A stretch of 64,000 nucleotides of DNA from a virus. The stretch lies in the IMG/VR virus record IMGVR_UViG_3300045988_140636; one strand, given 5' to 3'. Below are positions 4,977-60,579 of this stretch, piece by piece. Position 1 is the stretch's first letter. Each line of letters begins with the position of its first letter. The notes beneath the pieces are model-generated. The model did no database searches. It had not been told where the DNA came from and was given only the letters and a program-made list of their open reading frames with translations. The translations under genes were made by a program, and so were the position numbers.

Positions 4977-4984
4977 TCTAAGTC

Positions 4985-5364
4985 TTTCATAATTTTATGA
5001 AACATATCTAACTATTAAAAAACAACAGAAATGGCAGGAAAATTAGGAAAATTCCAGATGGTAGGTTTCCAACATTGGAAGGGTTGACTCACAAGTTAAG
5101 CCCTTGTAAAATTGGGTAAAATCGGTGAAGCCCTCCAAATAAAATTAAAGGGTAATACCGAGCTAACCTTTATAATAATATATAAAGGTAGTGTAACGCA
5201 TAGAAGATGAAACTATGATTAGAAAAGCATGTATTTATAATCACATAGAATATAATTCTTCCACGAGTATCCAACATACTGAATAGTATGAAAATGTATG
5301 CTGAACTTACACAATGGTAAAGTGTAAGAACTAAGAGATAAAAAGCTCTCAGGATAACAGATTG
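4985..5364 (+). ncRNA. candidate minimal (endonuclease-free) group I intron upstream of structural-gene exon; 5' boundary unresolved
   Basis: 5' part (5141-5215) is collinear with the 5' part of the GIY-YIG intron (shared ggtaataccgagctaac ... tagtgta ... gaaact); 3' end gataacagattg| matches the TAACAnnnTG| 3' ends of the other introns; putative P7 shows compensatory change (R-like acgcata / S-like tatgc). Confidence 0.35.
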
Positions 5365-6214
5365 TTAACAAAAGAGAACCACTTGGGTTCTATCTTCCAA
5401 TTAGCTCCACAAAAAGCTACCAACCTTATGGTTCAATTGCTTGCCTATTACAGAGGTAAAACCCTTGACACATTCCTAAATCAGTTCCCAGTTAGAGAAT
5501 TTGAAGATGATACTGAGTATTACTGGGATGTAATAGGTTCTTCAAGGAGAAATATTCCTCTTGTAGAGGCAAGAGATGAGAATGGCACTCCTGTTACTGC
5601 AGGAAGCCCTAATGTTGGTGTTGGTACTACTCCTTTTTATTTAGTCTTCCCTGAAGACTGGTTTGCTGATGGAGAAGTAATTGTTGGTCATTTGAACCAA
5701 GTATATCCATTCAGAATACTAGGTGACCCCAGAATGGAGGGAACTAATGCGGTGTACAAAGTTGAGCTGATGGGAGGTAATACTGCAGGATGCCCTGCAG
5801 AGAGACTCCTTGCAGGGGAAAGATTCTCTGTAGATTTCGCTCCAGTAGAGAAGGAATTATCAAGGAAAGTAGGTGATGTTAGATTCACTAGTCCTGTTTC
5901 CATGAGAAATGAGTGGTCTACAATAAGAATTCAACATAAGGTTCCAGGTTCTGCTCTTACAAAGAAACTTGCTGTGGGCATACCTATGACTAAAGCAACT
6001 GAGAACGGAGGACTTACCAAGTCTATAGCTACAATGTGGATGCATAATGTAGATTGGGAAGTTGAACAACAATTCTCTGAATACAAAAACAATGCTCTTG
6101 CGTTTGGTACTTCTAACAGAAATTCCAATGGGGAGTATATGAATATCGGTAAATCAGGCAATGCGATTAAGACAGGTGCTGGTTTAAAGGCTCAAATAGG
6201 CCAGCTAGCTGCAT
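5365..6214 (+). CDS. capsid-sized structural protein (major capsid protein candidate), exon A; ORF-track start 5362 is a TTG at the intron 3' end, not a real start
   Basis: Long ORF ending with T of TAA at 6214 where a group I intron begins (t|aagcag); spliced product ~500 aa with its own terminator; true N-terminus unresolved (possibly internal ATG ~5428 or an upstream exon). Confidence 0.5.
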
Positions 6215-7099
6215 AAGCAGTCAAGAAATTAAAATTAACAAAACTAAGTCGGTGGAAGTCCTGAGATGGATAATACCGAGCTAACTATAGGAACTAAAAA
6301 GCTTATAGTAGTGTAGAGACTAGAGGTTGAAACTCTTTATATTATGACTAAATATGGTAGAATCTATATAATAAGAAATACTATAAATAATAAGGTTTAT
6401 ATAGGACAGACTAAAGTAAGCTTAAAATTGAGATTTCAAAATCATTTATCTGCTGCAAGAAATAACAAAGATTATGTTATAGGTAAAGCGATAAGAAAAT
6501 ATGGTGAAGAAAACTTTTATATAGAATTACTTGAAGAGTGTACTATAGAAGAACTTAATGATAGAGAAAAGTATTGGATTTCTTATTTTAATTCTACTGA
6601 TAATAAATTTGGTTATAATATGTCTATTGGGGGTAATGTTATTAGAACCACTAAAGAATTAGACAAGGACTTAATAATAAACATGTTTAATTCTGGGATT
6701 CCAGCATATAAAATAGCTAAAATTTTGCATACTGGAGTACCTAATATTACTAGTCTATTAAAGAGATCTAATATAATTTATGGCTTAGGTTTGCAAAAGA
6801 CTAATAAACTTGAGGAGTCTATGATAATAGATTTATATTTAGATGGTTATAGTACAGTAGACATAGGAAAAAAGTTTGGTAAAAATAAGAGTACGATAAG
6901 AAGAATACTCTTGAGGAATGATATTAAACTTAGAGCCTTTAAAGAGACTAAAAACTTGGGAAGAGATCTCCCAACATTACAATAGTAATGCTCCACGAGA
7001 GTTTTGCATTTAGATGTGGTAATCTAAATGAATATATAGTCCGAACTTCATAGTAATATGAAGAAATAGTGGATAAAGAGCCACTATGATAACATAATG
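6215..7099 (+). ncRNA. group I intron containing GIY-YIG homing endonuclease gene
   Basis: 5' part with ataccgagctaac and R-like gtgtagagactagagg (6305-6320); S element aatatatagtccgaac at 7025-7040; P9-like hairpins ttcatagtaatatgaa and atagtggataaagagccactat; ends gataacataatg| at 7099. Confidence 0.7.
6344..6985 (+). CDS. GIY-YIG homing endonuclease (I-TevI-like) with C-terminal DNA-binding region, intron-encoded
   Basis: YGRIYIIRNTINNKVYIGQT ... R ... E ... N motifs of GIY-YIG; located between intron core elements. Confidence 0.8.
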   Translation: MTKYGRIYIIRNTINNKVYIGQTKVSLKLRFQNHLSAARNNKDYVIGKAIRKYGEENFYIELLEECTIEELNDREKYWISYFNSTDNKFGYNMSIGGNVIRTTKELDKDLIINMFNSGIPAYKIAKILHTGVPNITSLLKRSNIIYGLGLQKTNKLEESMIIDLYLDGYSTVDIGKKFGKNKSTIRRILLRNDIKLRAFKETKNLGRDLPTLQ

Positions 7100-7600
7100 T
7101 ATTTGAGCAAATGGAAGTAGCTAATACTATGTATTATAATACTTTCAGCTTGAAACTTCTTGAAGATGCCTTGTATGAATTATCTGCATCCAAGTTGGAT
7201 TTTGGTGATAGATATTTCTTAATCAAAACAGGTGAAAGAGGAGCTATCCAATTCCATAAAGCTGTATTGAATGTAGTTTCAGGTTGGACCCAATTTGTAT
7301 TGGATAACAGTTCTACTAGAGTAGTAGAGAAAACCCAGTCTAGATTACATACAAATGCATTGTCTGCAGGATTCCAATTTGTCGAGTACAAAGCTCCCAA
7401 TGGAGTCAGAGTTAAAATTGATGTAGATCCTATGTATGATGATCCAGTTAGAAATAAGATACTTCATCCTCTTGGAGGAGTGGCTTATTCCTACAGATAT
7501 GATATTATGTATATCGGAACAATGGATCAGCCGAATATCTTTAAGTGTAAGATTAAAGGTGATACAGAATATAGAGGGTATCAATGGGGGTTAACGGCGT
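7100..7600 (+). CDS. capsid-sized structural protein, exon B (joins exon A in frame: ...GQLAA-L-FEQMEVANTMYY...)
   Basis: 3' splice after g7099; one nt from exon A (t6214) plus ta 7100-7101 gives Leu codon; exon ends at T7600 of TAA where next intron starts (t|aagcc). Confidence 0.55.
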
Positions 7601-8433
7601 AAGCCTTTACACATTTCTCAGCTCCCAAAGTTCTCCCCTAGAAACAGAAGTAGAGCTAGTAAAGAAAAACAAGGTTAATTGCTGGAAGTTCCTTAGAGCT
7701 TTCACTGCTTTTTAAACTTCAAACATTTAAATATGGAAGTTAAAGAATTATGGAAGCCTCTGCTAGAATATAAAGGCATAGAGGTAAGCTCAATTGGTAG
7801 AATAAGAAAAGCTGCTAATAAGAGTAGAAAAGAGAGAATCTTGACTGAATTTCCTAAAGATAGAGATGGTTACTACAGATGCTCTGTGCAAAGACTTGAT
7901 GGAACATGGACTTCTCAACCAGTCCATAGATTAGTTGCCAAAGCATTTATCCCTAGAACTAAGAATAGAGATATAGTTAATCATATAGATGGGAATAGAA
8001 CTAATAACAGAATAGAAAATCTTGAATGGGTAACTCCAAAAGAAAATGTCATTCATTCATTTAAATTTGGTTCAAGAAAAATTTGTAAACAAGTTCCCAA
8101 GAAGACTATTCTAACAGATTTCCAAGTTAATCAGATAGGGAAATTAAGAGAATTATATACAGTCAATCAAATAGCTAAACTTTTTAATATAGAATATCAG
8201 TCTCTCAAAAATATAATTCATAAAAAGAAACAATGTGAAAGATTGGATGATCAGCAGCCAAGCATATATACTAGTGTATATGAAGGTTCAGAGACTATCC
8301 CAGATGGGAGTAAGTAGTAAGTACTACTGAAACGCCTTGCTCACTTAATATTAAGTGATGAAGATATAGTCCGAACTCTAATGAAAGTTAGAGATAATAC
8401 ATGGAAACGATGTATTAGCAACATAAAAAAAAT
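7601..8433 (+). ncRNA. group I intron containing HNH homing endonuclease gene
   Basis: P-like ggttaattgctggaag at ~7674-7689; S element gaagatatagtccgaac at 8346-8365; hairpins tctaatgaaagttaga and aatacatggaaacgatgtatt; ends aacataaaaaaaatg| at 8433. Confidence 0.7.
7733..8317 (+). CDS. HNH homing endonuclease (NUMOD4-HNH_3-HTH architecture), intron-encoded
   Basis: [10 protein letters not shown]...[26 protein letters not shown] core; N-terminal SIGRIR NUMOD4-like; C-terminal helix-turn-helix-like repeats. Confidence 0.8.
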
Positions 8434-8582
8434 GTGAGAAATCCTTTTACAGGACAGAAGGGTAATCCCTATATGTCTTTTGATGAGGACTCGGCAGTTA
8501 TTCATAGAATGGCCACTTTAGGTATCTGTGTTCTTGATCCTACGAGAACTATGTCAATTATTCCTGCTATACTGCAGGGTTA
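8434..8582 (+). CDS. capsid-sized structural protein, exon C (49 codons, ...DPTRTMSIIPAILQG*)
   Basis: Frame restored by t7600 + tg 8434-8435 (Leu); open to TAA 8580-8582; strong terminator immediately downstream. Confidence 0.5.
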
Positions 8583-8588
8583 ATATAA

Positions 8589-8619
8589 TGGGAGTAGGTA
8601 CTCCTACTCCCTATTTTTT
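8589..8619 (+). terminator. rho-independent terminator (gggagtagg tact cctactccc + T-run)
   Basis: Perfect 9-bp GC-rich stem then tattttttt; 6 nt after inferred exon C stop. Confidence 0.7.
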
Positions 8620-8634
8620 TAGAAAGGAGAAGAT

Positions 8635-9675: not shown

Positions 9676-9676
9676 T

Positions 9677-10345: not shown

Positions 10346-10379
10346 ATAATCTATTGTATAATTTAATATATATATTAAA

Positions 10380-11651: not shown

Positions 11652-11668
11652 GGCTATTAAATAATTAA

Positions 11669-11697
11669 GGGAGACTAATGTCTCCCTATTTTTTTTT
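11669..11697 (+). terminator. rho-independent terminator (gggagac taat gtctccc + T-run)
   Basis: 7-bp stem and 11-nt T-run after stop at 11651. Confidence 0.65.
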
Positions 11698-11719
11698 ATT
11701 ACCTTTATAATAGAGTGCT

Positions 11720-13316: not shown

Positions 13317-13320
13317 TACT

Positions 13321-29400: not shown

Positions 29401-30632
29401 TTCCTAATGGTAATTCAATTACTCTTATTAAGAATGACCCAATGACTCTTACTGAACAGCAAGCTAAGGATACTATCAGGAAGATACTTAATGGTAATCC
29501 TCAGAGAGTGCTAGATATATCAAATGAGAAAACTCTTATATTCGATCCTTCATCTGCTCCTGCAGTTGAAGTACCTAAACCTGAGACTCCTGCTAATATA
29601 TTATCCACCTCTACTGAGTCTGGAGCAGCTAAAACAGCACAAGCTGAACAAACAGTAAACAATAGAAAGGCTTCTAGAACTAGACATAAGTTAAGAGAAG
29701 TAGATAATAAAACAAGAGATGTTTGGAATCAAGAAAAGGAACTTGCATGGGTAAGAAAGATACTTCCTCAATTATCAGAAGATAATAGAATAAGAGTGGT
29801 AAAAGGTCTCATTAGAGTTGGTAGCCAAGGAACTTTAGCTTGGGGGCAATTTAACAATGGTATAGTTACTCTATCTGATATAGCTGCAGAAGGAACTGTC
29901 TATCATGAAGCATTCCATGTTGTCTTCAACCTCCTTCTGGACCAAACAGAAAGGCAAGGATTATTAGCTGAGGCTAGAGAAATGTACGGAGATAAATCTG
30001 AGTTAGATCTTGAAGAAGATATGGCAGAAGGCTTCAGAGAATATATGCAAACTAGACAAGCTAAAGGGCTTTTTGATAGGATAAAAAATTTCTTCAGAGA
30101 CCTATATGTAAAAGTAACAAATTGGAATAGGGTACAGCCACATCTTATTGCTTATTATCAGATGATAAATGAGGGCAAATATGCTGGAGATAACCTTAAT
30201 ATTTTCTCAATTAATCAATCTAGGAATAGAATAGTGTCTCCAGAAGAGCTAGAAAAAGCATTGAATGATGAATTCAAGAAGGCTAATGAAGAATTAAGAA
30301 AACTCAATTATAAAACTTATTATACTGTAGATGCAGCAATGAGAGCCTTTCGTAATAGTAATATAAGAGAAGCATTTTTATATAGAATTACTAGAGAAGG
30401 AGCCAATAATGCTGTAGGTCATAAGATTCAACTATTAACTGTCCCAATGTTTAATAGATATAAGGAAAGAGAATTGAACAGACTTAGAAAATCTACAGGA
30501 ATTGAGTTGTTATTTGATTCTTTAGATTCAGATATTCAAATGCAGTTACTTAATAAGGGATGGACTAAAGAGCAATTTGACTCTATCTCTATAGCCGAGA
30601 GAGATCAAGCTATTGCATGTCTAGCCATCTGA
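23469..30632 (+). CDS. giant virion protein (2387 aa) with C-terminal HExxH zinc-metallopeptidase-like motif (VYHEAFHVVFN)
   Basis: Single 7.2 kb ORF; HEAFH motif near aa ~2150; followed by bidirectional terminator. Confidence 0.5.
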   Translation: MANGINDPSKRGISGLKGLNTTEGINRYLDELGYSRSIPEYKMRKAASPEPIIQEVGEVGVGDSYFDRGITSLTQLQDLENTRGELQPWYSQISNGLAKGAVLAGTTFLNGTLGLLFGAETAIEEGRWSGLWDNPFDKALQSVNEWAEEALPNYYTREEQEGPWYDNIFTANFIGDKFIKNLGFAVGAFYGGSLISKTLKLTRLPQIIGTITKSSKAPKLVTSGVGVVASAVNESIMEALNNSTDWFNLQKAQIDDDYTSRLDAIGQSYVRGENGTITLTGNIKEFSLALQEAHSSSISRLTEDRLKMGNMDLLMNLPILTASNIIQFGKMYANGFKTARKATNIVGEAGEYTTKRTIGRGVAKSTMVALSEGLEEISQAAASRISGNYYEDDVNNFYKAKIDPQAEQETLSWIKSSAQGINETVNDGSSWEEFFIGTLTGALGIPKFRGVRSSDGRLQSPITLEGGIHGRFREYMDKINRETEIVNYMNNRVQSPEFKNYYQGLIRHNKYQTDMNQAVEENNEFEFKNAEYAQLVSDIAMFDNAGKLEDLTTLINAAYDTSDENLASIVENTTSTITDESGKEVKVGPFIDRNGNPMYSTPEGKQEMIDKLTQTKDEMLNTITNYTKIKDDIDVRTGQQLNDEQLEELTWLKAQIGNWQDRANQLSSEIKPTIGTILGSMSQLANMYNSVKTEEGRAHAGLTDLYNSADKNERQIRKNMSILETVRNLDDKTFTYLLSKDPKLVEGIKSVVESPLSGVAADDAQVFNEKIDDIVKLVNATANYNTKLKEYLENPTKLQEDIVSSTEEVAKKKSKRKSDNLKSKLLSATNLSEFRQALNEEEDIAIKEETLKSLEDEGNEMSKNYEETNSYNTEVQRVINSLNESPDVKMDALKLLQDQFENSSNLEEIANPNSIYIDNSYALYDDNLTLEENTIKFQEAQYALLRAMNQVNNENRFKNRFSQDYRTLREKGKPNPSAPTKDTTGDSETSTIPSVDTGGFPVTTYEPPAGNITSTQVRDENKETNDRIETPQSLDSKQKGKRPYYRPSIPELHIQASKEGDFRPFNIVAAEREHGVNFDELYNYLKGNGAFTYVNESNLKVGDELGFMIDPEFNDHTIFIVDRRNNQIVGSLDESDYSVSRYEGLAGLEEKIKAEFTQRGDKTKKFIATPTTRVSQIMVGRIPYSTEERSLANIPNVLGEGREPIFGIIKNGTLSTNGKIDDSLIIKPVDMAQKEGRMYLLIPNAAGKYSPAALRVKHFNKTEFNPDDIEIQSAQMYKNIQESIEALANSLSEDDLNNAVKSLSTNLYTGDLHIDWFTSDAGNGIRFTKVQRDAQGNEIYEEKDGKRIRKETVKTVFLTEKWDQNTLYSIIGDKEIQTGPALKNIDDISKEIREILLDFNLLLQVNLGMLNKGGYNNMLINSNVLTSNISDARVISSWFTTDYFDIEGNLHQAISPASISPDTTRKIETPVGGTEGVITGTKVVIDGVTYGVDLTTGIIYDSNNQRIYPENAQLISDLAWANANFGDATNGSLIWNNKILLPSGQVLDRGTQKYLTGENAQKVKDKIAGRERTVGDSKKVIAQIAENQKKVDKARTDSEFYYILEEDGQYHAYERVHNRLGSNWVESKKQSDSLKDIRVKLSQLSDNVTQYNNYLKYLGNHWKVDLSAFSGKIDVRNRDTIVNIIRDSMSETKSQRALNAGTAVDSVIRNFFTSNDTPIRPDNMNEKAFADLISSLTEIRSNIESRGERFLTNNIVLFQKYADGTRVAGEVDILSVDADGNFRIYDVKTSRYSFYDFIDRYGNKVNYFTNPSATQRISTRDYYTLQLSAYKNLFESQYHAPVTTLAILPFVTSYNKDIVEGVTKEKGIIITYNPSVNVPLVGAVKASEPTSTNSTVPVFNSALETQDPINNVLPEYSLEDSKVGYFVRDSKLHKSYLTPIGKVNGVDVYMAKIPNITKGFGRQGEEAHVASNSYMAIFPNGNSITLIKNDPMTLTEQQAKDTIRKILNGNPQRVLDISNEKTLIFDPSSAPAVEVPKPETPANILSTSTESGAAKTAQAEQTVNNRKASRTRHKLREVDNKTRDVWNQEKELAWVRKILPQLSEDNRIRVVKGLIRVGSQGTLAWGQFNNGIVTLSDIAAEGTVYHEAFHVVFNLLLDQTERQGLLAEAREMYGDKSELDLEEDMAEGFREYMQTRQAKGLFDRIKNFFRDLYVKVTNWNRVQPHLIAYYQMINEGKYAGDNLNIFSINQSRNRIVSPEELEKALNDEFKKANEELRKLNYKTYYTVDAAMRAFRNSNIREAFLYRITREGANNAVGHKIQLLTVPMFNRYKERELNRLRKSTGIELLFDSLDSDIQMQLLNKGWTKEQFDSISIAERDQAIACLAI

Positions 30633-30664
30633 ACATTATGGTGAAATTTTTTATTAGGGAGAAA

Positions 30665-30702
30665 GCAAAAAAAAAGGAGGAATATTGTTCCTCCTTTTTT
30701 TA
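30665..30702. terminator. bidirectional intrinsic terminator between convergent genes (A-run, aggaggaa tattg ttcctcct, T-run)
   Basis: 8-bp stem flanked by aaaaaaaaa and ttttttt; sits between + gene end 30632 and - gene end 30731. Confidence 0.65.
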
Positions 30703-30730
30703 TCTACAATATGCTTCATTAGTAGACACT

Positions 30731-33700
30731 TCATTGTTTAAAGAATGGAATTCCTGTTTCTGGATGTAATCCCCTGTATATAGTTCTATTCATTGGAATT
30801 ACAGGAGATTCAAAGAATGACTTATATGCTGTGCTATGTCCTTCATATCTGCCTGATTGTATCTCATCTGTATAGTTCCAAGGATTGAGTAATTTAGTTA
30901 AATCCAGTATATTTTCTATTGTATTTACACCAGCAGCAGGAGATTTAACGATCTTTAAGCCTTCTGAAATCATAGATTTTCCAGGTATCATAGCACCTAA
31001 TTCAGTATATAATCTTCTCGTCTGGTATTCAGTCATTCTGACTAGCCATGGCCTATCCTTATCATCAGACCACTTAATGAGACCTATAATAGCCATTACT
31101 GCTAAGAAATGCCCTGTTTCAGTTAAGGCTCTTTTTATATTAGCTTTTTCAGTAGAAGTAAGTTCATTCCACCTAGCGGCAATATTAAATTGAGTCTCTC
31201 TTAAATCTCTTGCGAGCTGCAATAGAAATCTACCACTCGTTCTATAATAACCTTCAGTCCAAGCATCTAAGTCATAGTTATATGAAGCTGATTTGAATCT
31301 TCTATTCAAAGATGGTTTTATCCACTTCCTGAACATCATACCCATTCTACCAATAGCCAATCTCTGTACTGCAGATCTATCAGCTTTATTATAAATACCG
31401 TGCATTCTCTGATTAATCGCAGCACTTCTTCGACTAAATTTAATAATATCATCTTGTGTGAAATCAGAACCATCAGCTTTTTTATAACCCTGCTTTAATT
31501 GAAGTTTAGTCCCTAGTTTCTTATTATTTTTATCAATAGGTACTACCTCCATGGCATCCCATAGACTAACAATCTTACCATTAGGAGCTTTCATCTTATA
31601 AGCATCTGCTAATGCTAAAGAAGTTCTATTCTGCATCCAGTGTTCTCCTGCATTATTCATAAAGAATAATGTAGATGTGCCAAACATTCTGCTGAACCAA
31701 GTCTTCCTATCAAAGTTCACTTCTCTGACATCCTGCTCATATTCCTGCATTACATTGAACAACTCATCCCATAGGGCAAGTTTGCTTGTCTTTACTCTAT
31801 TGCCTATCTCAGCAAGATATGCAGGAAGAGATTGACCATATATCCTATCAGCAGTAATTGTATTCTTCTCATTGAAGAACTCACCAGCAAATGACTCAAT
31901 TCTCATCATCACTTTACCAGTAGCTATATTGGAAATACCTGAAAGAACATTGAGTGCTAAGTTGTTCATAGAAGTAACTCTATTTGCAAAGTTAGCAACT
32001 TTACCCTTATCAATATTTGTCTTGCCAAATGTACCTTCATCTGCCATGTATCTTCCATATACTTGCATTTCAAAGAAGTCATTCAGTCTTTGGACAAATC
32101 TTGTAGCTTCTCCTTCTTTGGTTAATTTACTCTCAACCTTTCTACCTACTGCCTTGAACTTTTCTACAAGTGGCTTACCCCCTTGAGTTTGAATTACTTG
32201 CCTTTCTCTTAACAAGTCTCTACCTAATTCAAGCACATCAATAACCTTGTTCATTTCATCAAAGTCATTAGCCATTGCAGCATAGGCTGTGAGAGTACTT
32301 ACAATGTCAGTAGACAAGTCATTTGCACTTTCTCCCTCTTTCAGTTTAGTAAAGTATATAGGAAGAGTCTGTACCTCATTGCCTTCAAAGTCCTTCACTG
32401 TAGCTCTGTCTCCAAAGTCCACATCATCAGTTCTTCTAATAAACTCATCCTTGATACTTTTCCATATCTGCTTTGCCCCTGACCTCACACCATCAGATGA
32501 CTTAACTCTCTCAAGTAAGTCCTTTCTTATCTTGACAGCATTAGTAAGTGTAGTGTACTTCTCAGGCAAATAAGAATCCAACTGGGACTTAATGTTCATC
32601 ACTGTATCATAATACTCTTTCTGAGCTGCATTTAGTCTTTGGTATTGCTTATTACCATAGATTGACATCTTAGGTACTTTCTTACCATTGACTATTTCCA
32701 TATTGGCATCAAACCAAGCTTGTCTTTCTTTCTTATACTTCTCAGCATTTTCACCAACAGGGTTCTTTCCATACTTCTCATTAAGAGATTTGAACATTTC
32801 CCTTACTTTCTCCTTGAACAGGGCTTGATTGATTTCAGAGATGTAATTACCACTTAAATTACCCTTACTATCCCTCTCAAACATCCAGTCAGTATTCTTA
32901 ATACCAGCCTTTTCAAGTTTGATAGTAGCAGCCTGTAATTGTTTCATCACATCAATGGTTCTTGATCTTGCCTGTTCTTTACTCTTCTTGACAGCTTGAT
33001 CCATTACCTTTAACATATAATCCGAAGAATCTGCCATACTATCCAGCCATCTATCAAAGAAAGATATATCCTTATCAGCCATCTTCACCAAATCCTCGGC
33101 CTTAATTACTTTACCCTTAAATTTGCCAAAAGGTATCATAATATTTTCCCCTACAAAAGGTTTGATAAAGTCTACAAATAATGGCATAGACACACTATTA
33201 TATTTAACAAATAAGTCTCCAAGCAAGTTAGAAGTATCATTTAATAATACTCTCACTCTTTGACCATACCTATTGTCATCATATCTCTCTTCATCCACTA
33301 GTGCCTTCCTTATGTCCTCTATAATATTCTTATAAGAGTACATATAATTCCTCACATCCCTTAATACAGAAGCTCTCTTATTTACATTAGTTGCCGGAGT
33401 ATCCCTTAGTAATTCAAGTCTGTAACTTACTTTTTGTAACTCTTCAAGAGCATTATCAAGAAAAGAGTAAATTCCTTCAATTTCATTGTTATCATATAGC
33501 TCCATTTCTAGTCTATCAATAAGGAGCCTTTGATTGGTACTAAATTGACTATTAGGATTTCTCTTTTCGTAAATCTTAAGTCTTCTAAGCTCATTATTAA
33601 TAATATTCTGTAGTACTTTTCTATCTCTTTGAATTCTTTCATTGGTTTGATAGAATAGATCAGATGACTTGATATTATCTATACTTATCTCCTCATCCAT

Positions 33701-37630: not shown

Positions 37631-38540
37631 TTCAGTTGGTTGTTTTGTTATCTTACAGATGTTTATTCTGTAATTCTTTATGTTTCCATAAAGCACGGAC
37701 TATATCTTCATCCTATAAGGATGTTGGGCACTCGTGGGTATATTATATTCTATTTTCATAGTTTCAATACCTAGTCTCTGAACCTTTTATAACCATTTAA
37801 GTTATAACTTGGCTGCTGATTGTCCCTACTTATTGAATTGTCACACACTTGCATATTCCCAGTAATAACCATATCTTTTCTGATGAGTTTTAATACCACT
37901 AATTATGTTAGCATCTTTCCTAATATTTCCTAATTGTCTGGCAGCTTCTCTAATAGATTGGTAAGTATTTATAATATTACCATCATTATCTATTTGATTA
38001 ATCTGTCTTTTATTAGGATTAGATTCTCTAAGTTTTAATCCTATTTTAACTGCTTTATTTCCATAACAGTTATTATAAGACTTAGTACACCATTCAAGAT
38101 TTTCTACAGAATTATTAGTCTTATTTTCATCTTTGTGGTTTATACATTCCAAATTGTTAGGATTTGGAATAAAAGTATCAGCTACTATTCTATGTACTGC
38201 AATAGTTCTTTTCTTGTTAGTGTCATCGTATAATTTCACTATAGGATAGCCACTACTATCAAGTACTGAGGATAAAGGTTTCAAAATGTTACCTTGTCTA
38301 TAACTAAATACTTTACCACTTTTAGTTACTTTATAGCTTGGATATTCTCCAAATCTACTTTTAATATTAAATAGTTCTTCTTCCATATAATGTTTTTGTG
38401 TAGATTTATATGTGCAAAGATACTATAAATATTTGAATTATGCAAATTTTGTATCAATAATCTAACAGGATGTTCCAGCAATTCACCCAATTTATTATTC
38501 TTTAGTATTACTACTAAAGCGAGTCCCAATCTTTCGATTA
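37631..38540 (-). ncRNA. group I intron with HNH homing endonuclease inserted between P and Q elements (boundaries approximate)
   Basis: Minus-strand reading: P gggtgaattgctggaac (38496-38480), Q caatcagcagcc (37822-37811), R ggttcagagactagg (~37785-37771), S gaagatatagtccgtg (37716-37701), P9 hairpin ctttatggaaacataaag; exon 1 ORF stop at 38538-38540. Confidence 0.65.
37841..38386 (-). CDS. HNH homing endonuclease (HNH_3/NUMOD), intron-encoded
   Basis: AVHRIVADTFIPNP...INHKDENKTNNSVENLEWCT HNH signature. Confidence 0.8.
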   Translation of the reverse strand: MEEELFNIKSRFGEYPSYKVTKSGKVFSYRQGNILKPLSSVLDSSGYPIVKLYDDTNKKRTIAVHRIVADTFIPNPNNLECINHKDENKTNNSVENLEWCTKSYNNCYGNKAVKIGLKLRESNPNKRQINQIDNDGNIINTYQSIREAARQLGNIRKDANIISGIKTHQKRYGYYWEYASV

Positions 38541-49109: not shown

Positions 49110-49973
49110 CACATATGTTACGAATATGTCGATTCCACATATTCTCTTTAGATTTCTCTAAAGGTCGGACTATATCTTATAAAAATCTCCACATATAGGC
49201 TAGTTGCCCATTGGTTAGATTTCTATCAGTGCTTTTCAGCTGCTCTTGCAGCTTACTCCATTTCTGGATAGTCTCTGAACTCCATAATTTATAAGAGTAA
49301 CAATTAATAGGATATTTAGCTAATATAGAATGAATAATATAGGCTCCCTCATATTTATTTATTCCTAAATAATATAATGGTCTGCTATGATTATTATCTA
49401 CTCTTACTTTAGCTTTTACTCCTATACTCTCAAAGAAAGGAATAAATACATTTTCTTGAATATTCAGAGAAAATTTCTGAGTATTAAGGTTGTAATATAA
49501 GTCCCTCTTATGAAGGCTCCCATCATCATAGAACCACAATGCTAAACCTAACTCATCAAGATTACTCACTACTTCTTCTATAGGGAGTTCCTTGATTAAT
49601 TTAAGTGAAAACCAAGCTCCTCCATAATAAGTATATATGGGAGTTTGGTTATAACCATTGCTGTCTACATGATTTATTTTGCCTTTACCAATTAATTGTT
49701 TTTTATACTCTAAGTATTCCTTATGCTTACAATTGGATGTATATATAGTACTACCACTATTAGTAGTAGATATGCAACCATCCCCTAATATAGCAGTAAG
49801 AAAAACCTGAGTTTGCTCTCTTGTAAAATCATAAAGCTGCTTATTGCCTATTTCTCTTAAGTTACTTAAAATCATATTTAATACTTTTACTAGTTTATTA
49901 TTACAATAATTCAGTGATTAAATCTTTAAGGGTTTCAAGCAATTAACACTGTTTTACTACAACAAAATTACTT
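49110..49973 (-). ncRNA. group I intron with LAGLIDADG homing endonuclease, inserted in DNA polymerase motif C
   Basis: S element aagatatagtccgacc (49177-49160 on minus strand), P-like gtgttaattgcttgaaaccc near 5' end, P9 hairpins; 5' splice after t (tacgat|aag), 3' splice after g. Confidence 0.65.
49177..49875 (-). CDS. LAGLIDADG homing endonuclease (double-motif), intron-encoded
   Basis: Two LAGLIDADG-like motifs: FLTAILGDGCI and LALWFYDDGSL. Confidence 0.75.
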   Translation of the reverse strand: MILSNLREIGNKQLYDFTREQTQVFLTAILGDGCISTTNSGSTIYTSNCKHKEYLEYKKQLIGKGKINHVDSNGYNQTPIYTYYGGAWFSLKLIKELPIEEVVSNLDELGLALWFYDDGSLHKRDLYYNLNTQKFSLNIQENVFIPFFESIGVKAKVRVDNNHSRPLYYLGINKYEGAYIIHSILAKYPINCYSYKLWSSETIQKWSKLQEQLKSTDRNLTNGQLAYMWRFL

Positions 49974-53256: not shown

Positions 53257-53279
53257 ATTTATTCTATTTCTTTTTATTA

Positions 53280-53495
53280 TTAAAACAAATAATTGTAATC
53301 TACTATATGAGGGGGAGTCAAAGCCCTCTTCTTTTTAAACATAATTTTACTTCCTACCATAAAAGAGATACTATCTGCGTTATATCCTATAGCTTTAAGG
53401 TACTCTTCTACATTATCTATTTTATTAGCCACCTCCTCTGGTATTTTTATACAATCCACGGTGGAACTTTGATAATCCAATACTACAGTTTCCAT
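53280..53495 (-). CDS. hypothetical protein (71 aa)
   Basis: ORF upstream-adjacent to RNR. Confidence 0.3.
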   Translation of the reverse strand: METVVLDYQSSTVDCIKIPEEVANKIDNVEEYLKAIGYNADSISFMVGSKIMFKKKRALTPPHIVDYNYLF

Positions 53496-53512
53496 AATTA
53501 AATAGTTATTAG

Positions 53513-56500
53513 TTAATCACATCTTGAATAACCACAATTCATGCAGTGTGTACAACCTCCATCTCTAACTAGGTTTCCACCGCACTCTGGGCACACTTCT
53601 CCTTTAATCTCTGAAGATTTAATATACTTGGCTAATATTCTACACATGGCAGAACTGAAGGAAGTTATATTATCATTTACTTTTTTGGCTGTTTTAGTAA
53701 TAAATTCAATGCTAACTCCATGTCTTAATAGCATTGATGAATATAAAGTAGCGGCTTTCTCCTCTATATTAGTATTAGCCAACTGTAAATCAGATAATTG
53801 AATAAACTTACTATCAAAGCTGTAGTGCATTTTACCTTTCTTGATAATCTTTCCTTTATGGGGAGGAATATCAATAGGTCTTAGAGGTCTGAATGCAAAA
53901 ATTTCATAAGGTTTCCCTTCTAACAATCCTACAAGAACGATAAATTGTTCCCCTTTCACTTTGACTTGATGATAGTCAGCTTCAAGCTCTTTAGGTCTCT
54001 TAGGAGCTTGTCTATTACTTATAGTACTAGGCTTTTCTATCTTATTCAAGACTCCTTCCCTACAACCATCTCTATATATAGTCTGTCCTTTATTTCCTGT
54101 TCTCCATGCTTCTATATAAATATCAGCAATCTCCTCTTCAGTAATCTCTTTTGGAAGATTTATTGTAGAACTAATACTATGAGTGATATATTTCTGTACA
54201 ATACCTTGCAACTTGATTCTTTGCTTCCAATCTATCTCTGGTGCTGTAGATCCATAATAAGGACTCTTCTTAAAAGCCTCTTTAAGATATTCCATATCCT
54301 GTAACTTCTCCAAATATTCAGGATCATTGAAGTTCCCTTTGAATGTAGAATAGCATAACCATTTGGCTAAATTAGGATGAACCACTGTGAATAAAGTGTA
54401 TTTTTCTCCTTTTACATCAGTATAATCTACTTTATCATTAGGAGACATACATTTTCTCTTTCTTCTATAGAATGGTAAAAAGACAGGCTCTATTCCAGAG
54501 GAACATTGAGCCATAATACTCACAGTGCCTGTGGGTGCAACAGTCGACCAACTTATATTTCTTCGGCCTAAGCATTTCATTTTAATAGCCTCTGTGTGGA
54601 AATTATCACTAAGGAATTCATACCATTTGTTCTTGCCACGATGGGGTATAACAGTATATTCCTTATGTGAATCCCAAGCTGGAAATGCTCCTCTCTCAAT
54701 AGTCATATCTATTTGAGAGTCCAATTGACCCTTAAATATAATCCTCATCAGATCTTCAATTTTTTGAATACCTTCATCAGAATCATATTTCAGCCCTAAC
54801 ATAGCTATGGCATCTGCCAATCCAGTAAAACCAAGACCAGCTCTTCTACCTCTTCTTGTAGTCTCTCTTATTCTACTCCATAGATTAAATTCTACAAAGT
54901 CAGATTCACCGTTAGCTATATTTATAATTCTGTCTATGGCTTCCAATTCAAGATCTACAAGATCATCTGCTAATCTCATAGCTTCGTAGGAATGCTTGTA
55001 GAGTAAGTCTTTATCAATATAAGATTCTTCCGTAAATGGATCTTTTATATAGCTTGTCAGATTAATATGTATCAATCGGCAACTATCAAAGGGACCCATT
55101 GGTATTTCTCCACAGTTATGAGCAACCATATTATTAGCAATTAAACAATGTGTTCCAGGTACTTGTATATCATATACATCTACTTGTTCACCTTCTTCAA
55201 TGCTAACTATACAATTATCCCACTGATTTCTACACTTAGTAGCTAAGTAATCAGGTAATGGCTCTGTATTTTTCCAAGCTGGGGTTTTTTCACTTGGGAC
55301 AAACCTCCCATCTTCTCCTCTGACCTGGTGATTTTGTGGATTCTGTTCTAATGCTGTAAGTCTAGCATGTTTAGAGTGATCAATAGATTGAAGGTTATTA
55401 ATTACATTATTAAATGGATTTGCATCTAAGTGATGAATATCCTTATCAATCTGCTGACCATATACTCCCTCATAAACAAGTCTATGCTCCATTACATAGT
55501 CCCTATTTCCCTCGGTAGTAAGTTTCACTCCGACATATCTCCTTCCTCTTCTGCTCCTTAGGATATGAGCAATTCTATCTCCTATCTTAAGATTTTGAGC
55601 TTCTATAAATCCCACTCCTTGAACGAACATTTTATGGTTAGGCGTAACCATTATAGAAGATCCATTTCTTAGGACAATCTTTAATGTTTTAGCATTATCT
55701 CTTGTCTTAAAAGCTGCTGTAGAGGGAACTATACAAATATGCCCTTCCTCATTCATGCTATATACATAAGTAGGTTCAGTTATATCAGCAATTCTCTTTC
55801 TGCCTTCTACAGTTTCAATGAGAGTATCAGGATGAAAGCAAGGATTTGTCCCGATCATCTTAAATTCTTCATAAACACCATCAGGAGCATAATCATGCAT
55901 AGCATTTTCAAACATTATTCCAGGTTCAGCTGTATTATATGCACAATGCATTAGAGTATTCCATAACTTTCTTGCTTTAATCTTTTTTAAACAAACTCTT
56001 TTTTCAGCAGGAAGGGCTTCCCCAAAGCAGAGTAATTTATCATATTCCATCTCTTCTAATTGAGAAGGATCATAATTGGCATGTACAGGCCATCTAAGCA
56101 AATAATCTTCATCATTGATTACTGCTCTCATGAACTCATCTGTGACTTTCACACTTATATTGGCTCCAGTTACTTTGGTAAGATCTTGCTTTTTAGTAAT
56201 GAACTCTTCAATGTCAGGGTGATTTATACTAATACTTAACATTAAAGCTCCACGTCTACCATTCTGTGCTACCTCATTGGTGATATCAGAACATACATCC
56301 ATAAAGCTTGCTGCACCAGTAGATGATTTAGCTGCATTATTCACTGCAGCTCCTCTTGGTCTTAGATTAGATAAATCATAACCTACTCCTCCTCTCCTTT
56401 TCATGAGCTGGACTTGCTGGCTTCTGGTATTCATTATACTAGAGTAACTATCTACTGGAGAACCTATTACAAAACAGTTAGATAAAGAGACCAATTTTCC

Positions 56501-56797
56501 TGTACCTAATCCGGACATAACAGAACCTCCAGGGATTATATATTTAAAGTTCTTGAACAGTTCATATATATCCTCCTCTTTTAGCTCTTTCCTTTCATTC
56601 CCATAAGGGGATAATACTAACCTGCCTTTTTGACTCATAGGAGTATTATTCGCATATTCTCTCTCTATTCTACCAAATTCCTTAGCGAGTCTCCTATGCA
56701 TATCATCAGGAGTAGTTTCTCCTTCCATAGCGTACTTGTTTTTCCATGTGGAAGCCGCTAATTCATCTCCATTAAAATAATTCAATAAATCATTCAT
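53513..56797 (-). CDS. nrdJ: ribonucleotide reductase, class II (adenosylcobalamin-dependent, NrdJ-like) with C-terminal zinc ribbon, interrupted by an intein
   Basis: Catalytic NPCGEI region (split by intein), CPECGG...CTHCMNCG zinc ribbon at C-terminus, overall RNR alpha architecture. Confidence 0.7.
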   Translation of the reverse strand: MNDLLNYFNGDELAASTWKNKYAMEGETTPDDMHRRLAKEFGRIEREYANNTPMSQKGRLVLSPYGNERKELKEEDIYELFKNFKYIIPGGSVMSGLGTGKLVSLSNCFVIGSPVDSYSSIMNTRSQQVQLMKRRGGVGYDLSNLRPRGAAVNNAAKSSTGAASFMDVCSDITNEVAQNGRRGALMLSISINHPDIEEFITKKQDLTKVTGANISVKVTDEFMRAVINDEDYLLRWPVHANYDPSQLEEMEYDKLLCFGEALPAEKRVCLKKIKARKLWNTLMHCAYNTAEPGIMFENAMHDYAPDGVYEEFKMIGTNPCFHPDTLIETVEGRKRIADITEPTYVYSMNEEGHICIVPSTAAFKTRDNAKTLKIVLRNGSSIMVTPNHKMFVQGVGFIEAQNLKIGDRIAHILRSRRGRRYVGVKLTTEGNRDYVMEHRLVYEGVYGQQIDKDIHHLDANPFNNVINNLQSIDHSKHARLTALEQNPQNHQVRGEDGRFVPSEKTPAWKNTEPLPDYLATKCRNQWDNCIVSIEEGEQVDVYDIQVPGTHCLIANNMVAHNCGEIPMGPFDSCRLIHINLTSYIKDPFTEESYIDKDLLYKHSYEAMRLADDLVDLELEAIDRIINIANGESDFVEFNLWSRIRETTRRGRRAGLGFTGLADAIAMLGLKYDSDEGIQKIEDLMRIIFKGQLDSQIDMTIERGAFPAWDSHKEYTVIPHRGKNKWYEFLSDNFHTEAIKMKCLGRRNISWSTVAPTGTVSIMAQCSSGIEPVFLPFYRRKRKCMSPNDKVDYTDVKGEKYTLFTVVHPNLAKWLCYSTFKGNFNDPEYLEKLQDMEYLKEAFKKSPYYGSTAPEIDWKQRIKLQGIVQKYITHSISSTINLPKEITEEEIADIYIEAWRTGNKGQTIYRDGCREGVLNKIEKPSTISNRQAPKRPKELEADYHQVKVKGEQFIVLVGLLEGKPYEIFAFRPLRPIDIPPHKGKIIKKGKMHYSFDSKFIQLSDLQLANTNIEEKAATLYSSMLLRHGVSIEFITKTAKKVNDNITSFSSAMCRILAKYIKSSEIKGEVCPECGGNLVRDGGCTHCMNCGYSRCD
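55115..55840 (-). mobile_element. intein (242 aa) with HNH endonuclease domain, inserted between NP and CGE of the RNR active site
   Basis: Begins Cys (CFHPDTLIETVEG), ends HN followed by +1 Cys (MVAHN|CGEI); internal HNH motif DIHHLDANPFNNVINNLQSIDHSKHA. Confidence 0.75.
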
Positions 56798-57830: not shown

Positions 57831-57833
57831 ACC

Positions 57834-58106
57834 TTAATACTCTAAATCACTAGGAAAATCAAGTTGCATTAAGTACACATCTACCTCAGACTTTAACACA
57901 TTAAGGCTGTCTAGATCAATCTTTAAATATTCTGGCCTAGGATTTTCTTTCCTTCTGTCCATTCGTATCTTATTTATTGCAGAATCTACTAGCTCCTTCA
58001 ACGAGTAAAAGTCTCTATTATCTAGGAATTTATAGCCTAAATGAATATCCTTTTCAGGAAGTAAACCAATTAATTTCCTAATTCTATCTACAGGTGTGCT
58101 GCTCAT
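57834..58106 (-). CDS. hypothetical protein (90 aa)
   Basis: ORF. Confidence 0.3.
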   Translation of the reverse strand: MSSTPVDRIRKLIGLLPEKDIHLGYKFLDNRDFYSLKELVDSAINKIRMDRRKENPRPEYLKIDLDSLNVLKSEVDVYLMQLDFPSDLEY

Positions 58107-58596
58107 AATTTTTTATAATTTCTATTGCTTGAAGAAGTTGTTTTTTTGTATACACCTCAAAATATATAGATCTTTCACCGCTCTTTGTGTAGAGCTGGTC
58201 CAAGTAATACAAAAACATTTTCTTCTTGATATAAAATACATCATTTTCTATCCCCTTAGCCTCAATATACACATTGAGATTGTTATATTTAAAGTAAAAG
58301 TCTGGAGTATATCTGATTCCTACTATCTTTCCAGTCTTCTGTATTAATATCCTTGAAGGACAATTGTTTATTCCTTCTTCAAGTCTCTTGGCTCTTTGCC
58401 TATCTGTCTCCATATCATAATATGGAGTCATTGGTTGAAATCCATCCCACAAGGTAAAGGTCTTAGGTTCATATTGAGGATCAAATCCATGTTGTAAAAG
58501 GATATTATAAAATCTCTTCTCTATAACACTCTTAAAGGTAATGCTACTATCCTTGCAGACAGTAGCATTCCTTATCTTTTTATTTGCAGTTTTCAT
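58084..58596 (-). CDS. hypothetical protein with possible PD-(D/E)XK endonuclease-like motif (TPDF...YIEAKG)
   Basis: PD...E-x-K spacing; weak. Confidence 0.3.
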   Translation of the reverse strand: MKTANKKIRNATVCKDSSITFKSVIEKRFYNILLQHGFDPQYEPKTFTLWDGFQPMTPYYDMETDRQRAKRLEEGINNCPSRILIQKTGKIVGIRYTPDFYFKYNNLNVYIEAKGIENDVFYIKKKMFLYYLDQLYTKSGERSIYFEVYTKKQLLQAIEIIKNYEQHTCR

Positions 58597-59171
58597 TTAA
58601 AGTCAAAACATTCTTGCGTTAGCAAATTTTGAAACTCTTCCAATAATCCAAGAGCAATTTGGGCTTCTCTGGCAGATCTGAAAGCAGCGAAGTTTTTGTA
58701 ATCCTTGATACATTCTTTTTTCAGGTTATAAACTTTCATACTAATTATATCTGCCATGTATATGTTAGGGCTATTACTAATATGATCTTCATAATTGGCA
58801 TCTAGATCGATAGCTATTTCCCTTAAGAACATAGTATATAGTGAAGCTGGACAAATATTAAGTAAGGTAAAAAGGAATTCTATAGAATTCTCTTCATTTA
58901 GACTGGATTTTTGGCATATTTTCCTAAGATAATACTCTACATCTTTTTCAGATTTAAGGGGTCCTTCTTCTAGATCTTCTCTCTCTACTATTAAACCTTT
59001 TTTAATTAGTTTACTTATGCTATTAGGAAGTACAATAAATTCTTGAATTACAGAAAAGTAATCTCCCCTACGTACTCTTCTTATAACGTCACCCATTTTT
59101 ACTTCTTCACCTGCTTTAGTGTAATACCTTTTCTTATTCATATTTTTCTGTTTAATGTCAATATTCTTCAT
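58593..59171 (-). CDS. hypothetical protein (192 aa)
   Basis: ORF. Confidence 0.3.
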   Translation of the reverse strand: MKNIDIKQKNMNKKRYYTKAGEEVKMGDVIRRVRRGDYFSVIQEFIVLPNSISKLIKKGLIVEREDLEEGPLKSEKDVEYYLRKICQKSSLNEENSIEFLFTLLNICPASLYTMFLREIAIDLDANYEDHISNSPNIYMADIISMKVYNLKKECIKDYKNFAAFRSAREAQIALGLLEEFQNLLTQECFDFK

Positions 59172-59649
59172 ACCATTTTATGGAATACCCATAAATATCT
59201 CTTAATTTTTTATCTATTTCATCAAATAGATAATGAGGCATCTTTGTCCCACTCCTTGCAAAATATGCAGGGTGTTCAATCTTCAAAACATGATTGAAAT
59301 TCTTATTGATATACGGATCAAATGTTCCAGCTTGTTTACCGAATAATACATATACAATAGAACACAAATTTTCCGAAAGATTCTTTAATAATTTAGATAT
59401 GAATGGTCTCCATAACATAACATGGGAGCCTATTTTATTCATCTCCACAGTAAGAGCAGAGTTAATCATTAATATACCCTGCTTAGCCCAGTTCTCTAAA
59501 GTTTGGTCAAAGATAATGCTATCATGTGGAATTTCCAAATTTATCACTGCTTCTTTTAATATTTTTAGAGAAGGCGACAAATCTTCTTCTGAAACTTCTT
59601 TTCTATTTCCAAACAGTACTCCAGTAGCTACTCCCTTTTGTGGATAAGG
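59158..59649 (-). CDS. ung: uracil-DNA glycosylase, exon 2 (starts PYPQKGVATGV..., contains HVLKIEHPAYFARSG C-terminal motif); ORF-track start 59652 is a TTG at intron 3' end
   Basis: Aligns with UDG from PYHGP... through HPSPLS motif; intron ends ggtaacaaattg| at 59650. Confidence 0.75.
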   Translation of the reverse strand, partial: PYPQKGVATGVLFGNRKEVSEEDLSPSLKILKEAVINLEIPHDSIIFDQTLENWAKQGILMINSALTVEMNKIGSHVMLWRPFISKLLKNLSENLCSIVYVLFGKQAGTFDPYINKNFNHVLKIEHPAYFARSGTKMPHYLFDEIDKKLRDIYGYSIKWYEEY

Positions 59650-60579
59650 CAATTTGTTACCCCAAAGGCTCTTTATCCTTTGGTTCTATATATTACTATA
59701 TAGTTCGGACTATATCTTCATTGTTTCCAATGCAGGGCACTCGTGTCAGGTTTATTATTTGAGCTATTCACCTGTTAGTCTCTGAACCTTCTACATACTT
59801 TTATGCTCTTCTGTAGCTTGGCTGCTGATTGACTCATTAAGTTGTTCCAGCAATTCACCCTGTTTATCCAGAACCCTTCTTTTACTATAAGTAATTAGTT
59901 TATATTGCATGGATGGAATAATATAATCTTTAATTAGTTCTACAAACTTAGGAAAATCCTTAGCTTGTAGATACATACTATTATCATGTTTGCCTACAGT
60001 AAAATGTAAGTCAAATTTATTTAATAATATGTTAGCTAACAAAAGCTGTTCTTCAAGAGTAAATGAACAAGTAGATAAGGTACATGAATTTTTAGTTACA
60101 TAACCATCATCCATATACCATATAGCCAAACCTAAAGCATCTATATCTTTTACAAATTCTTCAAAGATTCTTTTATGTCCATTAGAGTCATAATATTTTA
60201 ATCTTATATTTGTAAAAATAGGATGTAATCTAGATTTAAATCTATATCCAACTAATTCATGTAAATATCTTTTATTATTTACATGATATTCAACTATAGG
60301 AGATACTAAGTTATATTTATTTAGTATCTCCCATTTATACTCAAGATATTCTTTTTGTTTTTCAGAGTGCGCTATACTAAGACACATATTTTTAGCTGTT
60401 TTTCCTACTGAACAAAAACATCCATCACCTAACAAACTTCCTATAAGAAGTTGTCTTAGATCATTTTCTACTTTAATTTCCTTGTAATTCTTCATACCAT
60501 TAAGAATTTGGCACAAAGATAAGGTATTTGACCTAATATTGCAATATTCTAGTTAAATTATTTATAGATTATTACCAAA
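59650..60579 (-). ncRNA. group I intron with LAGLIDADG homing endonuclease, splitting the UDG GQD|PY motif
   Basis: Minus-strand P gggtgaattgctggaac (59849-59833), Q caatcagcagcc (59830-59819), R ggttcagagactaac (~59798-59784), S gaagatatagtccgaact (59721-59704), P9 hairpins; 5' splice after caggat|. Confidence 0.7.
59791..60516 (-). CDS. LAGLIDADG homing endonuclease (double-motif), intron-encoded; C-terminus overlaps intron P/Q elements
   Basis: LLIGSLLGDGCF and LAIWYMDDGYV motifs. Confidence 0.75.
   Translation of the reverse strand: MCQILNGMKNYKEIKVENDLRQLLIGSLLGDGCFCSVGKTAKNMCLSIAHSEKQKEYLEYKWEILNKYNLVSPIVEYHVNNKRYLHELVGYRFKSRLHPIFTNIRLKYYDSNGHKRIFEEFVKDIDALGLAIWYMDDGYVTKNSCTLSTCSFTLEEQLLLANILLNKFDLHFTVGKHDNSMYLQAKDFPKFVELIKDYIIPSMQYKLITYSKRRVLDKQGELLEQLNESISSQATEEHKSM

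Follow-up and report, generated by a model that had tools for sequence, protein, structure and literature searches.

In crAss-like phages, group I introns with endonuclease open reading frames (ORFs) split core genes, that of the major capsid protein among them, and inteins occur as well, as described by Yutin et al. (2021; Nat Commun 12:1044, PMC7886860). Staphylococcus phage Twort has three IA2 introns in orf142 and others elsewhere (Landthaler and Shub, 1999, as cited in PMC10136302 and PMC3984707), phage T4 has introns in td, nrdB and nrdD (sunY) with the endonucleases I-TevI, I-TevII and I-TevIII, and the DNA polymerase introns of SPO1, Bastille and Pf-WMP3 carry HNH nicking endonucleases (PMC3984707; PMC3428280). 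Here six elements of this kind are analysed in a stretch of 64,000 nucleotides of viral DNA (IMG/VR record IMGVR_UViG_3300045988_140636), called the window throughout, which by sequence comparison is a genome segment of a crAss-like phage (Steigviridae) and a mosaic relative of the uncultured crAss-like phage cr128_1 (Mahlunavirus rarus, Steigviridae). An earlier note on this DNA had proposed that one family of group I introns had spread to six sites within the genome. We consider it probable that the six are self-splicing introns of the IA type which arrived by independent homing, and that the one in the RNA polymerase (RNAP) gene belongs to a lineage whose introns end in A.

The interrupted genes, identified from Pfam matches and public annotations, are those of the crAss major capsid protein (introns M1, M2 and M3), a large “putative RNA polymerase”, DNA polymerase A (polA) and uracil-DNA glycosylase (UDG). 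The introns are as follows, with an arrow marking each junction:

5085-5364, + strand: M1 intron, 280 nt, without an ORF, following capsid codon 18.
6185-7099, + strand: M2 intron, 915 nt, at capsid codon ~291; the junction GAGL↓FEQ matches cr85_1.
7592-8434, + strand: M3 intron, 843 nt, at capsid codon 455; junction WGL↓RNP.
37640-38540, - strand: RNAP intron, 901 nt, last base A; junction ...GYRV↓PTEDKY.
49110-49973, - strand: polA intron, 864 nt, splitting motif C of DNA polymerase A, ..PYD↓EINCEAPEE.
59650-60579, - strand: UDG intron, 930 nt, splitting the GQD↓PYPQK motif of uracil-DNA glycosylase.

The intron boundaries were set by the intron-less alleles of cr85_1 and cr128_1. In cr85_1 the capsid, RNAP, polA and UDG genes are all continuous and each of the six sites is empty, while in cr128_1 the three capsid introns and the polA intron are present and the RNAP and UDG sites are precisely empty. 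The empty RNAP site of cr128_1 reads AGAGTT↓CCAACA, at which the window has exactly 901 additional bases, and its empty UDG site is contiguous at positions 23640/23641 of L022. The predicted spliced ORFs are of 504 (capsid), 2404 (RNAP), 760 (polA) and 225 (UDG) amino acids, contain no internal stops, and are 86.7, 73, 43 and 65% identical, respectively, to their counterparts in cr85_1; the GSDFDVD motif of the RNA polymerase lies some 45 codons past the intron junction. Taken together the introns account for 4.7 kb (7.4%) of the window, and their junctions mend four essential genes which are recorded as fragments both here and in the public cr128_1 record.

The capsid gene begins with a short exon overlooked both in ORF lists and in the RefSeq annotation of cr128_1:

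5031-5084, + strand: capsid exon 1, 18 codons, MAGKLGKFQMVGFQHWKG, which matches the uninterrupted capsid protein of cr85_1 at its N-terminus.

The cr85_1 protein begins MAGKLGKFQMVSFQHWKG-LTKENH; in the window the exon 1 sequence is followed by a stop, and LTKENH resumes from 5365. The six introns proposed in the earlier note for positions 4977 to 60579 are thus all present, except that the first begins at 5085 and not at 4977, the bases before it being an intergenic spacer (4977-5030) and exon 1. The note had several introns beginning with AAG directly after an exon U; the actual 5' starts are UGACUC, UAAAGG, UAACGG, UAAUCG, AAGUAA and UUUGGU, so that this holds for polA only. The five 3' ends it quoted are true ends, each with a G directly before the exon, whereas the RNAP intron ends in A, 57 nt past the point that the note had assumed. 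Likewise, the ORF starts at 5362, 49112 and 59652, which it took for artefacts of intron ends, are indeed the last three intron bases, whereas the fourth, at 37696, lies inside the RNAP intron.

Folding into group I architecture, which the same note had put forward as the means of testing its reading, was examined for every element, and all six fold accordingly; from sequence and predicted structure we conclude that all six are group I introns. Helices were placed intron by intron, and their order and complementarity were verified by script. The pairings with the exons are:

M1: P1 AAGGGU/GCCCUU; P10 UUAAC/GUUAA (5 bp).
M2: P1 GCUGGUU/GGCCAGC; P10 UAUUUGAG/CUCAAAUA (8 bp).
M3: P1 UGGGGGU/GCUCCCA; P10 UGAGAAAU/AUUUCUCA (8 bp).
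RNAP: P1 GAGUU/GACUC; P10 CCAA/UUGG (4 bp).
polA: P1 CUACGAU/GUUGUAG; P10 GAAAU/AUUUU (5 bp).
UDG: P1 CAGGAU/GUUCUG; P10 CCUU/AAGG (4 bp).

In all six a U·G pair closes P1 at the splice site, and P10 lies directly 5' of the guide G of that pair. P3, P4, P6, P7, P8, P9 and P9.1 were found in every intron in the canonical order, with the P4-P6 domain and the P3-P7-P8 pseudoknot, P5 being explicitly placed only in M1 and M2, and in M2 the helices from P2 to P9.1 were placed. The guanosine-binding G-C pair of P7, at what we take to be the position equivalent to that in the Tetrahymena numbering, is kept throughout; the P7 strands are GACUA/UAGUC, or GCAUA/UAUGC in M1, where three pairs are altered on both strands and the G-C pair is retained. 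M1 and M2 share a distinct P4-P6, AAUCGGUGAAG ... UAAUACCGAGCUAAC. Both P7.1 and P7.2 were placed as complementary strands in M3 and polA, and P7.1 likewise in M2 and UDG; in RNAP nested stems between P7 and P3' were located and tested, and in M1 nested stems are seen in the free fold and the alignment fold. The layout of the six introns, with P7.1/P7.2 and P9.1, is that of the phage-type IA group, and we infer subgroup IA2.

Two of the introns exceed the gathering threshold of the Rfam group I model RF00028 (50 bits), UDG with 80.9 bits (59686-59932, - strand) and RNAP with 54.4 bits (37676-37919, - strand), and an ORF-less homologue of the RNAP intron from contig L015 reaches 77.8 bits. The part of M3 that lies 3' of its ORF scores 43.1 bits (8181-8393, + strand), which is below the threshold, M1 gives a partial match of 20.7 bits, and neither M2 nor the polA intron is matched by RF00028 at all. 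These misses coincide with ORFs that break or fill the core and with the variant P4-P6 and P7 of M1 and M2; polA has no match because its ORF fills the core. The assignment of M1, M2, M3 and polA to group I was therefore made by helix-by-helix analysis and covariation. No hidden intron beyond the three matches emerged from a permissive-threshold Rfam scan of the window, and a scan of it for the GGATAAAGAGCC motif returned M2 and UDG only.

Covariation backs these folds. The unconstrained fold of M1 gives P1, P3-P6, P8 and P9, i.e., its nested helices, with z = -3.4, and unguided RNAalifold of an M1-class alignment (21 sequences from unrelated IMG/VR contigs) recovered P6, P7, the P7.1/7.2 stem, P9 and P9.1, with compensatory changes in 27 of 37 predicted pairs. 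Among 12 homologues at the RNAP site, 24 of 67 pairs are compensated, including a P1 pair with the exon: GAGUU/GACUC covaries to GAAUU/GAUUC in relatives, exon and guide bases changing jointly. In the polA intron P3, P4 (UUGCUUG/UAAGCAG), an 11-bp P6, P7, P7.1, P7.2, P8, P9 and P9.1 were placed, and homologues at the polA site (L147, L152, L154 and L164) show compensatory changes in P7.2, P9 and P9.1. The UDG guide sequence follows the 5' splice site at a distance of some 700 nt, past the ORF, which thus sits in the P1 loop; candidates for a guide near the 5' splice site gave only weak matches of 3-4 bp.

The shared core elements named P, Q, R and S in the earlier note are real, albeit for part of the set. 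Exact R (TTCAGAGACTA) and exact S (AAGATATAGTCC) each occur four times in the window, against 0.09 and 0.02 copies expected by chance, and all copies lie in the M3, RNAP, polA and UDG introns, always paired and in the correct order. Exact P and Q occur in the M3, RNAP and UDG introns, and M1 and M2 lack the quoted P, Q and R strings. The Q element of polA was sought beside R or P and is missing there; it was located as AAUAAGCAGCU within the start of the ORF, the body of which is flanked by the 11-bp P6. Both R and S are close to the RF00028 consensus. The TAACA tail, also listed in that note, is conserved in position and across the intron class, but is not enriched in the window: TAACA(N)TG has 82 matches there against 73±10 expected, and it was rejected as a genome-wide signal. 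Its meaning derives from position and from conservation across the class.

Five of the six introns carry a homing endonuclease gene (one GIY-YIG, two HNH and two LAGLIDADG), M1 having none:

6344-6985, + strand: M2 GIY-YIG gene, 213 aa, between P7.1 and P3'; Pfam GIY-YIG, 35.7 bits, with HTH domains too.
7733-8317, + strand: M3 HNH gene, 194 aa; Pfam HNH_3, 49.0 bits, and NUMOD4, 29.6 bits.
37841-38386, - strand: RNAP HNH gene, 181 aa, placed between P and Q in the loop of P5; Pfam HNH_3, 33.2 bits.
49177-49875, - strand: polA LAGLIDADG gene, 232 aa; Pfam LAGLIDADG_2, 43.5 bits.
59791-60516, - strand: UDG LAGLIDADG gene, 241 aa from a TTG; Pfam LAGLIDADG_2, 115.7 bits.

All five proteins exceed the respective Pfam cut-offs (GIY-YIG 22.6, HNH_3 24.8 and LAGLIDADG_2 25 bits); the RNAP protein also has a weaker I-HmuI NUMOD-like match of 19.6 bits, under the 27-bit cut-off of that model, and the likely start of the UDG protein is the ATG at 60495. 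The claim that three endonuclease families sit in different loops is therefore upheld, with the gene in L5 in the RNAP intron and upstream of P3 and of the P element in UDG. The M3 ORF begins in L5 and runs through Q, P6, R and P7.1 into P7.2, the polA ORF has its start in L5 and its body in L6 and continues through R, P7.1, P7.2, P3' and P8 to a TAA stop overlapping the S element, and the UDG ORF, in L1, reads through the guide sequence, P3, P4, P5 and P6. The two HNH proteins (M3 and RNAP) share 55% identity over a 42-aa motif only and the two LAGLIDADG proteins (polA and UDG) 31% over 140 aa; they are not recent copies of one another. Since both the family and the position of the cargo vary between introns, its genes are separable modules, in agreement with the independent invasion of endonuclease genes envisaged previously; the same follows from IMG/VR contig L015 (IMGVR_UViG_3300035498_000142), which has a 318-nt version of the RNAP intron without an ORF but otherwise homologous. 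Within the polA intron, diverged homologues (L147, L152, L154 and L164) keep both frame and stop over the segment 49177-49290 (- strand) despite sequence changes in P8 and P7.2, and these bases appear to double as coding sequence and ribozyme core; overlap with core helices is seen for the UDG and M3 ORFs too.

Group I introns end almost universally in guanosine (ωG), and five of the six do so here. The RNAP intron, however, ends ...GAUAACAAAACAA↓CCAACU, its last base (37640, - strand) being an A. When compared with the empty site of cr128_1, its insertion boundaries have no repeated bases, and hence no shifted splice site restores the intron-less sequence. A shifted site using a G of the downstream exon was rejected, as no such G is conserved (CCAACUG, CCAACAG and CCAACGG are all found). 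All of the roughly 20 homologues fetched for the RNAP site end CAA↓CCAAC (among them L005, L008, L011, L014-L021, L124, L131, L133, L134, L137 and L139), and an IMG/VR search for a variant of the RNAP intron ending in G gave no matches. The nearest G lies 12 nt upstream, the bases between being ATA ACA, one of AAA, ATA, AAT, CAA or TAA, and CAA. Use of this G as the 3' splice site (AAG↓AUAACAAAACAA, adding ITKQ to the protein) was rejected on two grounds, a misfit of P10 and an in-frame TAA within the 12 nt in four contigs (L124, L131, L133 and L134). Exon 2 is open for 653-989 codons in L124, L133 and L134, and with an in-frame TAA ahead of an otherwise open exon the upstream G cannot be the splice site. 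The exon 2 frame ends after 45-46 codons in L015 (~2900-3040) and in L131; in L015, the only one of the two in which this was read, the closure sits at the GSDFD(V)D catalytic motif. Such early closure suggests a further intron insertion site in the polymerase gene.

The placement of the terminal A is supported by P9.0. In the class as a whole this helix, formed by J7/9 (G-xx-C after the S element) with the two pre-terminal bases, covaries as AA/UU-G, AG/CU-G and AC/GU-G; a full 2-bp P9.0 before a G is found in 13 of 20 sequences, a number reached in none of 2000 shuffles. In the RNAP intron UG of J7/9 pairs with the CA just before the terminal A, P10 (CCAA/UUGG) starts at the next base, and the guanosine pocket of P7 is canonical (G-C). 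We infer that this intron splices at CAA↓CCA with a terminal A and that the second step is probably slow or inefficient; given that its other defining features are present, the element is retained among the group I introns, its terminus being non-canonical. On balance, it seems rather probable that a widespread lineage in abundant crAss-like phages of the human gut splices with a terminal A despite a canonical pocket, the 3' site being defined by P9.0 together with P10. If so, the second splicing step of an essential polymerase gene would be intrinsically different from that of other introns, possibly slow or regulated, and the lineage would be a natural and evolutionarily successful exception to the terminal-G rule, of which the ORF-less 318-nt version is directly testable in vitro.

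The missing terminal G could instead mean that the RNAP element is defective in splicing or only half-reacting and that the polymerase is made as two polypeptides, an N-terminal part stopping at the TAA just past the 5' splice site and a separately initiated C-terminal part. A stop codon does follow the last exon 1 codon directly, and fragmented RNAP ORFs were described for some crAss-like groups by Yutin et al. (2021; PMC7886860). However, an early stop past the 5' splice site is also found in the five canonical introns, there is no conserved start before exon 2 (an ATG at its codon 8 is missing in L015, and the upstream frame is shut by TAA in four contigs), structural selection acts on the ribozyme, as seen in the 24 compensated pairs and in P1 covarying with the exon, and both P9.0 and P10 put the terminal A at the junction. 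A split polymerase is thus unlikely. It is scarcely credible that none of the elements are introns and that the genes are truly fragmented, with free-standing endonuclease genes in the spacers, as the cr128_1 record is annotated; RefSeq there lists separate “major head protein” fragments and endonuclease coding sequences and no intron features. Against this stand Rfam matches above threshold, full sets from P1 to P10 complementary to the exact exon ends, folds backed by covariation and the existence of precise empty sites, and the fragments lack start codons of their own, the apparent ones being the last bases of introns.

As to origin, the earlier note suggested repeated intron spread inside one genome, followed by independent invasion of endonuclease genes; in such a model a single lineage would have reached all six sites through ectopic homing or reverse splicing. 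There is much that all six share (P7.1/P7.2, P9.1 and the UAACA tail), and particular pairs share more: M1 and M2, in the same gene, have an identical 15-mer, M2 and UDG a common GGAUAAAGAGCC loop, and M3 and polA the same P7.1/P7.2/P9.1 layout, while the ORF-less L015 intron shows the endonuclease module to be separable. However, the 3' halves of the six introns have only 57-70% mutual identity, and for each of them the best non-orthologous introns in unrelated viral contigs are as close or closer (68-75%). The common strings are class-wide: the 15-mer of M1 and M2 occurs in 99 IMG/VR stretches, from highly diverse contigs of 4-184 kb, class motifs were found in 99 and 36 such stretches, and contigs of jumbo phages and giant viruses also contain the GGAUAAAGAGCC loop and the GAUAACA...G (UAACA) tail. 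These strings represent the consensus of the class. Between the seemingly similar pairs the stems show numerous compensatory changes, a sign of long divergence; cr128_1, a close relative, has clean empty sites for two of the six, and the same site-specific introns are found in far more diverged phages. Multiplication within this genome is accordingly improbable, and independent homing fits the identities better. The six belong to a widespread class of phage introns, and most likely each site gained its intron independently, from other crAss-like phages. The ribozyme parts of the RNAP intron are 84-100% identical across contigs in which the flanking exons are 72-93% identical to the window, and such conservation above that of the exons points to homing from other phages.

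This account of independently acquired, self-splicing introns should nevertheless be considered with caution, as several points weigh against it. The margin by which external introns are closer is small (a few percent), and comes from a set fetched by exact 15-20-mers of these very introns, a retrieval that biases it towards similar sequences. The conservation of the ribozyme above its exons could be due in part to structural constraint and not to recent transfer. For M1, M2, M3 and polA the Rfam model either fails or stays below threshold, and the splicing of all six introns is predicted from sequence and structure. As for the RNAP intron, reported work on Tetrahymena mutants would make a terminal A a poor substrate for exon ligation, given that the pocket is the canonical G-C.

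Under the mechanism known for group I introns, each intron would be transcribed inside its host gene and fold into a ribozyme, in which an external guanosine bound in P7 would attack the phosphate after the last U of the exon, in the U·G pair of P1. The released 5' exon would then attack the 3' splice site, placed by P10, the 2-bp P9.0 and the terminal nucleotide in the same guanosine pocket, to yield an intact reading frame. Spread would presumably occur in mixed infections, where the endonuclease would cleave an allele without the intron in a related phage and repair off the intron-bearing copy would duplicate the intron into the cut allele.

Mobility is seen in the presence or absence of elements at the same sites among relatives, with precise empty alleles; the survey of occupied and empty sites called for earlier thus found them polymorphic, with cr128_1 empty at RNAP and UDG and cr85_1 at all six. 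The window and cr128_1 are distinct genomes, with identities that vary by block, from ~99.2-99.4% in the capsid region to 94.6% in the polA block, ~92% in RNAP and 87.5% and 73% in the two UDG flanks, and whole elements also differ between them. Steigviridae crAss-like phages swap site-specific introns and an intein at high frequency, and near-identical genomes differ by whole elements, a polymorphism that can serve to mark co-infection and recombination among uncultured gut phages.

Across three genomes the capsid gene stands out as a hot spot for introns. Expressed as cr85_1 codon positions, it is interrupted at codons 18, 291 and 455 in the window, has introns at codons 61 and ~455 in cr116_1 (L146), and is interrupted at about five sites, codons <=17, 121, 290, ~338 and 455, in bajarodcaudo virus 1 (L145, PQ006092.1). 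The window also has a ribonucleotide reductase large-subunit ORF (53513-56797, - strand, 1094 aa) which harbours an intein bearing an HNH endonuclease (Pfam Intein_splicing at aa 333-561 and HNH_3 at aa 438-479). The inserted segment of 723 nt (55115-55837) is missing from cr128_1, and is thus a predicted seventh, polymorphic self-splicing element, bringing the predicted total of the window to seven. Conversely, ~1.75 kb of cr128_1 (L001 1362-3115) has no counterpart at window position ~2916/2917; by L001 coordinates this includes a portion of a stand-alone gene whose annotation is group I intron endonuclease (L001 2832-3209), and the 3' end of that gene runs beyond the indel boundary. Positions 30569-30731 of the window, where convergent + and - gene blocks meet and several weak, sub-threshold Rfam matches stack, are probably a bidirectional terminator.

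Among described systems, the closest is that of the crAss-like phages themselves, being the same phenomenon in the same virus order; the study of Yutin et al. (2021; PMC7886860) stressed the Delta and Zeta groups and detected its elements by protein domains, whereas the phage of the window belongs to the Steigviridae (Beta group). Defined here are the RNA structures, the exact junctions, the ORF-less M1 and the overlooked 18-codon exon, and one lineage of introns lacks a terminal G. As in Twort, one genome holds several group I introns of the phage IA type, and a single gene contains three of them; however, two of the orf142 introns are highly similar, whereas the three capsid introns are only 59-66% alike, and there are differences in host phylum, in genes and in endonuclease complement. 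With the introns of T4, SPO1, Bastille and Pf-WMP3 they share the IA type, insertion at conserved motifs of genes for nucleotide metabolism and DNA polymerase, GIY-YIG and HNH genes in peripheral loops, and homing, but the window has LAGLIDADG genes as well, and its polA, UDG and M3 ORFs reach far into the core. The td intron of T4 also ends ...AACAUAAUG.

For the missing terminal guanosine, the only precedent we know of is the intron Cbu.L1917 of Coxiella burnetii, in its gene for 23S rRNA, described in the title of a paper by Raghavan et al. (cited in PMC5423948) as one that “lacks the canonical omegaG”, and which is said to end in A and to splice all the same. That intron belongs to a bacterial rRNA gene and to another subgroup (PMC10136302 gives IB2 and IA3 for the two Coxiella introns), whereas the RNAP intron sits in a phage protein gene, has an HNH endonuclease and is found in many diverged crAss-like phages. 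As a set, the six introns are well-resolved additions to the known group I introns of phages, in which the predicted terminal-A lineage is the sole departure from the definition of the family.

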